Below are positions 3,856 to 5,835 of a stretch of DNA of 24,793 nucleotides, piece by piece. The notes beneath the pieces were generated by a model. The model did not search any database and had not been told where the DNA came from. It worked only from the letters and a program-made list of their open reading frames with translations. The translations under genes and the position numbers were made by a program. Each line of letters opens with the position of its first letter. Position 1 is the first letter of the stretch. Origin of the DNA: a virus (taxonomy: Duplodnaviria; Heunggongvirae; Uroviricota; Caudoviricetes); the IMG/VR virus record IMGVR_UViG_2740892230_000034. One strand, 5' to 3'.

Positions 3856-5835
3856 TTAATTGTGCTCCTTAGCAAAGCGCAAGCTACCTGCGCTTAATAC
3901 TGCAGATAACGTATCTCCCACTCTAGTCACACTTAAGTTGCTAGTTCCTGCAATGTAACTAACAGTTGTCGTTGTTGCCAGTGTCATAACTATTGGTATA
4001 GTTATGACTCGTTCTGTACCTCCGCTATCAACAAACTGAACAGATAAAAACTGAAACCTTCTATTTATTTTATATGAAAATGATAATCCAGATATGGATA
4101 ATAATCCACTTTGTCCTATTTTTATATTCCAATCAGAAAAATCAGTTATGTTAGATGGGTCTATATTATTTTGCGAGTACCATGATGTTATTGCGCCTGA
4201 TGATGTTTTTCCTTTAAAATAAACAAATGAACTACTTGCTTTTTTAAAATTATTATCACATATGATAACCACCTCTTGAGTTGATAGTTTAGTTTCATCA
4301 TAGAATGCGCTGGTAAGTACTGCGTCATCTGCGTTAACACCCCGTATCTCAGAAATCTTAGTCACACCAGCCCTGTCAGTGTCTTCCGCTTTGTTTATGA
4401 GAGAGTCTGTATTGTTTACCCACGCAGACAGCACTCTAGCCACAGGGGTGTTATACTGACGCATCAATTGCGAAACACCAGAGATAATACCTGCCTTTAA
4501 AGTGATTTCCTGGCAATTGTTGCCGTAAGCAAGGATTGGTTTATTCACCCCATCCCATCTATAATTACCAACTTCAACATCAATTCGTCCACCACTGCAC
4601 CATACAACAGCATTTGTTTGTCCTCCGTCAAACTTAACCCCATAAACAGCACCAACTTTAACAAAAGCGTAGCGTTCGGCGTTTATTTTCATTTGAAGCG
4701 GGTTGTTGCTGGTTCCCGTGACGTACCCAATATCTATACGGCAATTATCTCCTGCGCCATCTACGTTAATGCCGCGGTGGTCAGATCCAATAACCCCGCC
4801 AGAGCCGACAACGCTACAGTTTTCACAAGTAAAGAAACCAATAGGGTTGTTGTTGTGCGGTTTAGAATGAATGGAGTTATATTCTGTACCTATCTTGCCG
4901 TTAAGAATGTAGGTAACATTTTTCATAACAGCTGTAATTGTGTAGTTATTGTCATCCCAAACCGTTGCATCAGGGTTAAGAAAATGTGCAAAGGACCACA
5001 TCCCCCCGGAGTTTAACCCCATAATTTCTGGCCCTACCGTGGGGTCATCGTAACGCCCCATAACTGTAACCCCAGCTTCGTGGTGTATTTCTATATTATC
5101 TCGTAAGGGATGAATAGAGCCAAGAACATAAAAAGTACCTGTTGCACCATATTCAAATTTACTGAATCTTGTGTCTCTTACCAGTTTTTGAATTACATTA
5201 CGGTTATGCGCAGCGTTTAGCGGAACATATTCACCTTCAATAATGCCAGCGGAAGCGAAATTAGGCGTCATTAAAATAAGATACCCGCCAACTGCAGAAA
5301 TATAAAATATAGGTGACTGTGGTTTTTCAGTTGTAAACACCCAATCTGTTACAACTGGAACATTATAATAATAAGTTCTAACCTTTTTCCCATCTGTTAA
5401 CCCTAATATTGATTGGGCCTGTTCAACGGATGAGCATTCGAGAATAGCACCACCAACGATAATGGCTCCTGCGCTCCCCTGTAATTCTTGCCGTAGCTGA
5501 TCAGGATCATACTTCAGAACATTAGGAAAATAGAACTGCTGCACACCGTACGCATCATAAATAGCCATAGAATGGCCTTGCACAGTTACGAACTTAGCAA
5601 TCTGTCCGTTATATACCGGATATCCAGCAGCGTTAATGATGATTGGTTGCGAAACAGGAACGTGAGAACCGTCTTCGTTTTCCACATAAACCTGAATCTG
5701 GTTTTCAGGATTTACCGGGTCAGTGTCAATTTTTCCGATATAAAATTTGCCATTGGCTACGGCTTTAAAAGAACGAGCCATAGTGAAGAGTTGCGAAGGC
5801 ATCGATACGATCACATTGGCTGTAATGTCTGTCAT
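3856..5835 (-). CDS. Tailspike protein (P22-like head-binding N-terminal domain, divergent receptor-binding domain)
   Basis: N-terminus [97 protein letters not shown] is the conserved P22/Sf6-family tailspike head-binding domain. It is 659 aa and the last gene of the late operon. The remainder is not recognisably P22-, Sf6- or HK620-type to me. Confidence 0.9.

Follow-up and report, generated by a model that had tools for sequence, protein, structure and literature searches.

Intragenic mosaicism in the receptor-binding part of an O104-specific tailspike gene beside an acyltransferase cassette in a P22-like prophage of Escherichia coli

We have described here the mosaic structure of a tailspike gene carried by a virus of the class Caudoviricetes, recovered as IMG/VR virus record IMGVR_UViG_2740892230_000034, whose whole 24,793-nucleotide stretch we refer to as the window. 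The gene (positions 3856–5835, minus strand; identified from its open reading frame (ORF) and translation) codes for a 659-residue protein that is 100% identical to the one annotated as WP_000129896.1 in the enteroaggregative strain E. coli 55989 (O104:H4), and the whole of positions 1600–6000 is 100% identical to NC_011748.1 2666621–2671021 of that strain. Very probably, this region is the receptor-binding part of an O104-specific tailspike from a P22-like prophage of E. coli O104:H4, and it is an intragenic mosaic that lies beside an acyltransferase cassette. The gene itself, its O104 specificity, the modular arrangement of anchor and receptor-binding domain (RBD), the sharing of the RBD with phage CLB_P1, and the adjacent acetylase have already been published. 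New here is a breakpoint map at the sub-domain level, in which the acyltransferase block is the constant partner and the beta-helix is the exchanged part.

The original prediction, made from the letters of the window, concerned positions 3856–5500, which correspond to the part of the tailspike outside the head-binding domain. It held that only the first ~115 residues resemble the P22 tailspike and that the remainder is a different receptor-binding module fused to the head-binding domain, and both points are borne out. Head_binding (PF09008) is the sole Pfam match of the protein, covering residues 1–113 and profile positions 1–113 of 113 (E=1.6e-65), and the PDB sequence matches, to Sf6 gp14 and P22 gp9 (E values from 6e-64 to 3e-44), end at residues 117–118. 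This head-binding, or particle-anchor, domain (5497–5835, minus strand) has 85–98% amino acid identity to many P22-like phages. Beyond it, the beta-helix that structure prediction had been expected to reveal is present in an AlphaFold 2 (AF2) model, which has a right-handed parallel beta-helix RBD followed by a C-terminal domain, with predicted local distance difference test (pLDDT) values above 85–95 across residues 130–659. The receptor-binding part can be divided into a neck, or small N-terminal subdomain (residues ~121–200; 5236–5475, delimited by identity to other alleles and the secondary structure of the AF2 model), a right-handed beta-helix core (residues ~201–510; 4306–5235) with a GC content of ~0.44 that constitutes the CLB_P1-like segment, and a C-terminal beta-sandwich domain (residues ~511–659; 3859–4305) with a GC content of 0.33 that contains the AT-rich 3' patch, all on the minus strand. 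In characterised tailspikes the beta-helix holds the glycan-binding groove. Within the family to which this RBD belongs, residues N211, R212, R245, N328, N329, S351, and D352 are among the invariant positions and H353 and D359 are nearly invariant; these conserved residues, the acidic and histidine positions D352, H353, and D359 among them, are candidate active-site residues only.

The mosaic structure emerges from codon alignments of four alleles (the window, CLB_P1 from OZ035730, NCTC9104, and MRE162) compared in 30-codon windows, and from alignment of positions 1400–6400 in 100-nucleotide windows. Nucleotide identities of the window allele to CLB_P1 and to NCTC9104 are, respectively, 0.67 and 1.00 over residues 121–180, 0.95 (96–98% in 30-codon windows) and 0.71 over residues 181–360, 0.86 and 0.64 over residues 361–510, 0.53 and 0.66 over residues 511–630, and 0.39 and 1.00 over residues 631–659. 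The beta-helix core (about 4300–5295) is 86–98% identical to CLB_P1 and only 56–70% identical to the NCTC9104 prophage allele. Identity to NCTC9104 is about 100% from position 3897 down to 1638, the whole acyltransferase gene included, and identity to MRE162 is about 100% over 1638–4297, 80–90% over 4298–4797, and 96–100% over 4798–5497. Sliding identity delimits a low-GC block (1638–3897; GC 0.335) that is about 100% identical in 55989, MRE162, and NCTC9104 and contains the acyltransferase gene together with its flanks, the hairpin between the two genes, and the final ~14 codons of the tailspike; the low-GC C-terminal domain that adjoins it (3898–4297) is identical in 55989 and MRE162.

Junctions are observed near nucleotide 3897 (residue ~646), near 4298 (residue ~512), and at about 5200–5297 (residues ~180–210), and the latter two coincide with boundaries predicted in the AF2 model, one between the beta-helix and the C-terminal domain and one between the neck and the cap helix of the beta-helix. 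The junction at the beta-helix/C-terminal-domain boundary is placed at 4290–4310 by both the 100-nucleotide and the 30-codon identity profiles and is coincident with the GC step. At about nucleotide 4298, identity to CLB_P1 falls from 81–98% to 39–69%, whereas identity to MRE162 rises from 80–90% to about 100%, a level that is held through the acyltransferase gene. The GC dip is therefore a true recombination junction, as had been proposed. Two CLB-type alleles on further N-terminal architectures (P0003, with PF18668, and P0004, with no Pfam anchor) have 84–92% amino acid identity to CLB_P1 through the C-terminus and only 45–48% to the window, and because such alleles stay coherent to their ends it is the window allele that is the chimera. 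Moreover, because the acyltransferase gene is 99.6–100% identical in nucleotide sequence in all 24 complete E. coli genomes found to carry the RBD, across lineages with cores that differ at 30–44% of nucleotides, the beta-helix core has been exchanged independently by crossovers inside the gene.

The 3' patch (3960–4310) has a GC content of 0.308, which is low like the 0.341 of the acyltransferase gene, as the original prediction stated, and is below the 0.437 of the tailspike core (4306–5295) and the 0.428 of the head-binding part. The rest of the prophage (6000–24793; 18.8 kb) has a mean GC of 0.471 in 351-nucleotide windows (standard deviation 0.036; minimum 0.362), and none of these windows reaches a GC as low as that of the patch. 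The low-GC tract is unbroken from about 1640 to about 4300. Over residues 511–630 the GC content at third codon positions (GC3) is 0.13–0.23, compared with 0.30–0.59 in the homologous CLB_P1 codons, and because the low GC resides at third positions the patch is a compositional signal and not an amino-acid effect. There is also a second, shorter low-GC patch in the tailspike neck (5296–5385, residues 151–180; GC 0.289, GC3 0.13), about which the original prediction was silent; this patch, at 100% identity to the NCTC9104 allele and 67% to CLB_P1, flags the opposite side of the beta-helix core that was exchanged. By segment, the GC of residues 511–630 is 0.31 in the window, 0.44 in CLB_P1, and 0.33 in NCTC9104, and that of residues 181–510 is 0.43–0.45, 0.42–0.47, and 0.36, respectively. 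The NCTC9104-type allele is uniformly low in GC (0.33–0.38) and the CLB_P1-type allele is uniformly at about 0.45, and in the window allele a CLB-like core is framed by ends of low GC. Colinearity of the C-terminal region with a known tailspike of similar GC had been named beforehand as the outcome that would speak against a recombination boundary; the region is indeed colinear with CLB_P1, but at 39–53% nucleotide identity and with a different GC.

The receptor-binding module had been described as unrecognised, but it corresponds to a published O104/K9-specific RBD (PMC3303846, PMC10408124). In a tblastn search of phage genomes, the tail fibre of CLB_P1, a virulent Kayfunavirus, matched residues 113–659 in a colinear alignment that runs through the final residue, with 78% amino acid identity. 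Outbreak-lineage genomes are 99.4% identical in nucleotide sequence to the window over the RBD. Scholl et al. (2012) fused residues 114–659 of the outbreak-strain allele EGR74047 (659 residues) to the R2 pyocin fibre, and the resulting pyocin, AvR2-O104.1, killed all O104 strains tested, 55989 and outbreak isolates among them, together with one O9:K9 strain, K9 being the same polymer as O104, and killed no other serogroup; mutants resistant to it had lost high-molecular-weight O-antigen (PMC3303846). CLB_P1 was isolated on 55989 and also infects 2011 outbreak clones (PMC3594211). Pas et al. (2023) describe an O104 receptor-binding protein (RBP) subtype common to Kayfunavirus CLB_P1 and Lederbergvirus prophages, with membership defined by the same host serogroup and by an amino acid identity of 30% or more to a validated member across 60% or more of the RBD (PMC10408124), and by its identities to CLB_P1 and to the outbreak-lineage alleles the window tailspike falls within this subtype in sequence. 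Recognition of the sialic-acid-containing O104 O-antigen (the K9 capsule polymer) has been shown by published experiment for the near-identical outbreak allele, and, by analogy to the tailspikes of other P22-like phages, this one probably also cleaves the O104 polymer.

Of 5426 complete E. coli genomes, 24 carry the RBD; every one of these is among the 37 with O104 wzx–wzy and none belongs to the other 5389, although the 24 are not phylogenetically independent and represent about five lineages (O104:H4, MRE162, NCTC9104, A11, and TOK-001). Searches of the PDB with the single sequence or with a 41-sequence profile gave no relative of the RBD, only N-terminal anchor domains being matched, and PHROGs has no family for it. 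Members of the RBD family, 49 in a set of 5.8 billion proteins, derive from E. coli, Hafnia, Providencia, Enterobacter, and Citrobacter and have an anchor of the P22 type (PF09008), the PF18668 type, the T7 type (PF03906), or the PF12571 type; no part varies more within the family than the C-terminal domain, at 20–47% amino acid identity. One homologue, from Hafnia paralvei (P0008), has an RBD with 66% amino acid identity to that of the tailspike. The Hafnia alvei 2 O-antigen has an internal 4-substituted sialic acid, as does O104 (PMC9631793), and the Hafnia homologue and this shared feature together hint that the RBD family tracks such glycans.

Every complete E. coli genome with either the acyltransferase or the RBD has both (24 of 24), and each of these genomes is O104. 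The prophages that bear the cassette lie at differing chromosomal sites, at argW–intS in 55989 and TOK-001 and adjoining dacD in NCTC9104 and MRE162, and their backbones diverge directly outside the cassette when compared in 100-nucleotide windows. In L008, a distant metagenomic phage of the P22-like kind, the RBD has 40% identity, and a 636-residue AT3-SGNH acyltransferase with 67% identity lies convergent downstream of it, the two having similar GC (0.43–0.44, against 0.50 for the backbone). In a P22-type relative with 68% RBD identity (P0007), the integrase gene (int) lies directly downstream without an acyltransferase there, and a further relative (P0027; RBD 37%) has an unrelated AT3-only acyltransferase. 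Cassette-level linkage is real, yet not obligatory. The proposal that the specificity domain was exchanged together with the O-antigen modification gene accordingly stands in part: the 24/24 linkage and the arrangement in L008 support it, but only the C-terminal beta-sandwich shares the history of the acyltransferase, and the beta-helix does not.

A scan of genome contigs with the acyltransferase returned mostly chromosomal homologues of unrelated bacteria at 25–35% identity, and only Morganella (53%) and two viral contigs (53–61%) were close; the RBD described here was found near none of these 53–61% orthologues. They lie convergently downstream of Mu-like or myovirus-type tail-fibre and tail-fibre-assembly genes, at 2178–4088 of L063 and 6001–7928 of L066 (IMG/VR) and in L022 (Morganella psychrotolerans). 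The adjacency of the acyltransferase to a receptor-binding gene extends beyond P22-like phages. Among P22-like phages, an O-antigen-modifying gene between the tailspike gene and the int gene and attachment site (int/att) is an established pattern, exemplified by Sf6 oac, P22 gtr, and BTP1 gtrC (PMC4413052).

The window allele most likely arose by double crossover between homologous sequences inside the RBD, with the crossovers at domain boundaries. The low-GC ends of the tailspike gene belong to a low-GC cassette that includes the convergent AT3-SGNH acyltransferase gene and occupies the usual lysogenic-conversion position between the tailspike gene and int/att, and the higher-GC beta-helix core is an allele that is common, at 86–98% nucleotide identity, to the virulent T7-like CLB_P1 and to phages with other anchor domains. 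The parents would be a low-GC allele of the resident prophage and an allele of the CLB_P1 type, with all of the phages on the same O104 host. It is somewhat unlikely that the whole specificity domain (residues ~120–659) and the acyltransferase were instead acquired as one low-GC cassette, such that recognition and modification were exchanged together. The co-occurrence in 24 of 24 genomes at two integration sites favors a single acquisition, as do the low GC throughout the NCTC9104-type allele beside its 0.34-GC acyltransferase gene, which fits an ancestral cassette, and the same arrangement with similar GC in L008. However, the window core has a GC of 0.44 and a different history, with 86–98% nucleotide identity to CLB_P1, which is without the acyltransferase, and the acyltransferase block is about 100% identical to that of lineages with cores that are only 56–74% identical. 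Furthermore, the enzyme is missing downstream in P0007, P0027 has an unrelated one, and orthologues of 53–61% identity lie beside myovirus-type tail-fibre genes with none of the RBD described here nearby.

Exchange in the reverse direction, with the 55989-type allele being original and CLB_P1-type virulent phages taking the beta-helix core while growing on O104 lysogens, we regard as unlikely. Virulent phages that replicate in lysogens have direct access to prophage DNA, CLB_P1 was isolated on a carrier of the prophage, and core identity is 95–98% over residues 181–360, but the core GC of 0.43–0.45 fits the rest of the CLB_P1 allele (0.44–0.48) and not the window flanks (0.29–0.38 and 0.31), and on each of three N-terminal architectures the CLB-type alleles hold together over their full length. 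A gain of the core by CLB_P1 from 55989 during laboratory propagation was considered and rejected, since the identity falls short of 100% and MRE162 is equally close. That the GC dip reflects mere amino-acid content or relaxed codon usage in a fast-evolving C-terminal domain is extremely improbable; the divergence of this domain across the family is what such an explanation would expect, but GC3 lies far below that of the corresponding CLB_P1 codons, identity to CLB_P1 and identity to MRE162 both change sharply at one point, and the relatives L007, L008, and L010 are without a 3' GC dip. Amino-acid composition as the cause of the low GC is effectively refuted by GC3 and the identity switches. 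A broader proposal, which taken as a whole is quite unlikely, is that the RBD family would be a beta-helix enzyme class for O-antigens in which sialic acid is internal and 4-substituted, as in E. coli O104/K9 and Hafnia alvei 2, that the AT3-SGNH protein, always linked and nearly invariant, would be a periplasmic O-acetyltransferase of the sialylated polymer that is kept in the outbreak remnant for host benefit, and that temperate and virulent phages would trade beta-helix alleles so as to follow the receptor in its acetylated form.

Several points weigh against the interpretation that we favor, a double crossover in an O104-specific tailspike gene beside an acyltransferase cassette. The C-terminal domain of the window is also 34% diverged in nucleotide sequence from the low-GC allele of NCTC9104, and there must therefore have been at least three parental lineages and a history beyond one double crossover. 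The direction of exchange, whether to the prophage from a lytic phage or the reverse, is suggested by composition and allele coherence and not by a dated phylogeny. The O104 strains 94-3024 (= RM13368) and RM9387 have the O104 cluster without the cassette, and 55989 and the outbreak strains have it with the cassette; these cassette-positive and cassette-negative strains, which are non-isogenic, are all sensitive to AvR2-O104.1 (PMC3303846), and this argues against the acyltransferase strongly blocking its own tailspike. Across these non-isogenic strains, the pattern, together with infection of 55989 by CLB_P1, suggests indirectly that any O-acetylation by the acyltransferase leaves tailspike recognition unblocked. 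Finally, we found no paper that tests glycosidase activity or trimer formation of the tailspike or the acetylation target of the acyltransferase.

The closest known system is the EGR74047 tailspike of E. coli O104:H4 LB226692, from which AvR2-O104.1 was made; it is the same gene at the same locus, with 659 residues and an adjacent acetylase, and it differs from the window by only a few substitutions, although the outbreak prophage is a remnant and the window carries a full virion module. Strain 55989 holds an apparently complete prophage (PMC3303846). CLB_P1 gp17/gp17.1 (KC109329 / OZ035730) has an RBD that is colinear from residue ~120 to the last residue, with 99% amino acid identity over residues 181–360, and shares the same host (55989, O104:H4), but it differs in having a T7-type N-terminus and a C-terminal domain that is 28–47% identical in amino acids and higher in GC, in being without the acyltransferase, and in being lytic. 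We note that KC109329 splits the CLB_P1 tail fibre into gp17 and gp17.1, whereas the newer OZ035730 has one continuous 758-residue ORF. Two 1-nucleotide indels, 49 nucleotides apart (at 3872 and 3921 of KC109329, and 1590 and 1638 of OZ035730), flank the annotated gp17/gp17.1 junction, and the architecture of an adapter plus a separate RBD protein described for CLB_P1 (PMC10408124) may for this reason rest on sequencing errors.

Phage CUS-3 was also among the tblastn matches of the tailspike. CUS-3, a P22-like prophage, and the T7-like K1F both have endosialidase tailspikes, and CUS-3 carries the neuO O-acetyltransferase gene in E. coli K1. As in the O104 case, P22-like and T7-like phages share an RBD for a sialic-acid-containing polymer, and an O-acetyltransferase lies next to the tailspike. 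The RBD for K1 is an endosialidase of beta-propeller fold that carries a C-terminal chaperone, and NeuO is soluble and of the hexapeptide-repeat type, whereas the O104 RBD is a beta-helix and the enzyme beside it is a membrane AT3-SGNH protein. BTP1 and P22-like Salmonella phages (with gtrC or oac; g341c, Sf6) likewise have an AT3(-SGNH) O-antigen acetylase beside the tailspike, with 33% amino acid identity to that of the window, and provide the paradigm of lysogenic conversion. In BTP1, the modification shields the O-antigen from the phage's own tailspike (Kintz et al. 2015; PMC4413052); unlike this, lysogens with the O104 acyltransferase stay sensitive to the tailspike-pyocin.

The acyltransferase gene (1875–3785, plus strand) is convergent with the tailspike gene and codes for a 636-residue AT3 plus SGNH membrane protein, a putative O-antigen O-acetyltransferase, assigned from Pfam, PHROG, and motif evidence. 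The protein matches PF01757 (Acyl_transf_3) at 84.8 bits (cut-off 31), PF19040 (SGNH) at 113.4 bits (cut-off 27), and, over its full length, PHROG 6705 'O-antigen acetylase' (E=3e-147), and it belongs by these matches to the AT3-SGNH proteins, in which an AT3 domain with ten transmembrane segments is fused to a periplasmic SGNH domain. Its best matches among isolated phages are the g341c and BTP1 GtrC acetylases. The literature on OafA and OafB describes an R...H motif in the first transmembrane segment of AT3 and the GDS and DxxH motifs of SGNH; in the translation we read the AT3 R...H motif as DGLRALAVLLVFAYH, the GDS of SGNH block I within YIGDSNAGHY, and the DxxH of block V within YHDNGHLS. 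The adjacent putative O-antigen acetylase, kept in what is left of the prophage in the outbreak strain, was noted earlier, with acetylation only proposed (PMC3303846). The O104 unit contains N-acetylneuraminic acid (Neu5Ac) and derivatives such as Neu5Ac,7Ac,9Ac (PMC7685785). A small acetyltransferase gene also lies next to neuB in the O104 gene cluster itself, and either enzyme could supply the reported O-acetyl groups. Judged from its sequence, the phage acyltransferase would O-acetylate the O-antigen of lysogens. The 70-nucleotide spacer between the convergent stop codons contains a perfect 12-bp inverted repeat, ATATGAACCTCT-(loop)-AGAGGTTCATAT (3810–3842), which was read from the sequence, lies inside the 100%-conserved block, and is likely a bidirectional terminator. 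A promoter and terminator consensus scan did not list the repeat at 3810–3842, and it gave fewer promoter-like sites than in shuffled controls.

The RefSeq order at the 55989 locus is tRNA-Arg (argW), intS, the acyltransferase family protein, the phage head-binding domain-containing protein, Arc, the P22AR antirepressor, further Arc-family proteins, and a DNA transfer protein; from this annotation of the identical locus there is a P22-type late/immI module near int/att, and the locus is a P22-like (Lederbergvirus-type) prophage. The relatives L008 and L010 have the P22 gp7/gp20/gp16 Pfam families upstream. The intS stretch of the window (1–1654) is split by three runs of ten Ns (431–440, 1079–1088, and 1392–1401) with duplicated flanks, and positions 1–430 and 442–1078 map to overlapping portions of 55989 intS at 97.5–98.8% identity; because of this overlap the window is not finished 55989 sequence across the intS stretch, which has the look of a scaffold from a draft assembly or of edited sequence. 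The 370-residue 'integrase' ORF ending at 1113 is an artefact of the broken stretch. The 303 nucleotides between two of the N runs (1089–1391) match neither the 55989 locus nor any other part of the window and may be part of an insertion sequence that collapsed during assembly.

Exchange between temperate P22-like and virulent T7-like phages occurred within the receptor-binding region itself, where domain boundaries are predicted, besides the junction between the anchor and the RBD. The tailspike gene concerned is the specificity determinant of an O104-targeted pyocin and defines the O104 RBP subtype. Current understanding is unchanged by these observations, which provide a worked example of sub-domain modularity that helps in the engineering of chimeric tailspikes and in the reading of GC steps within phage genes.

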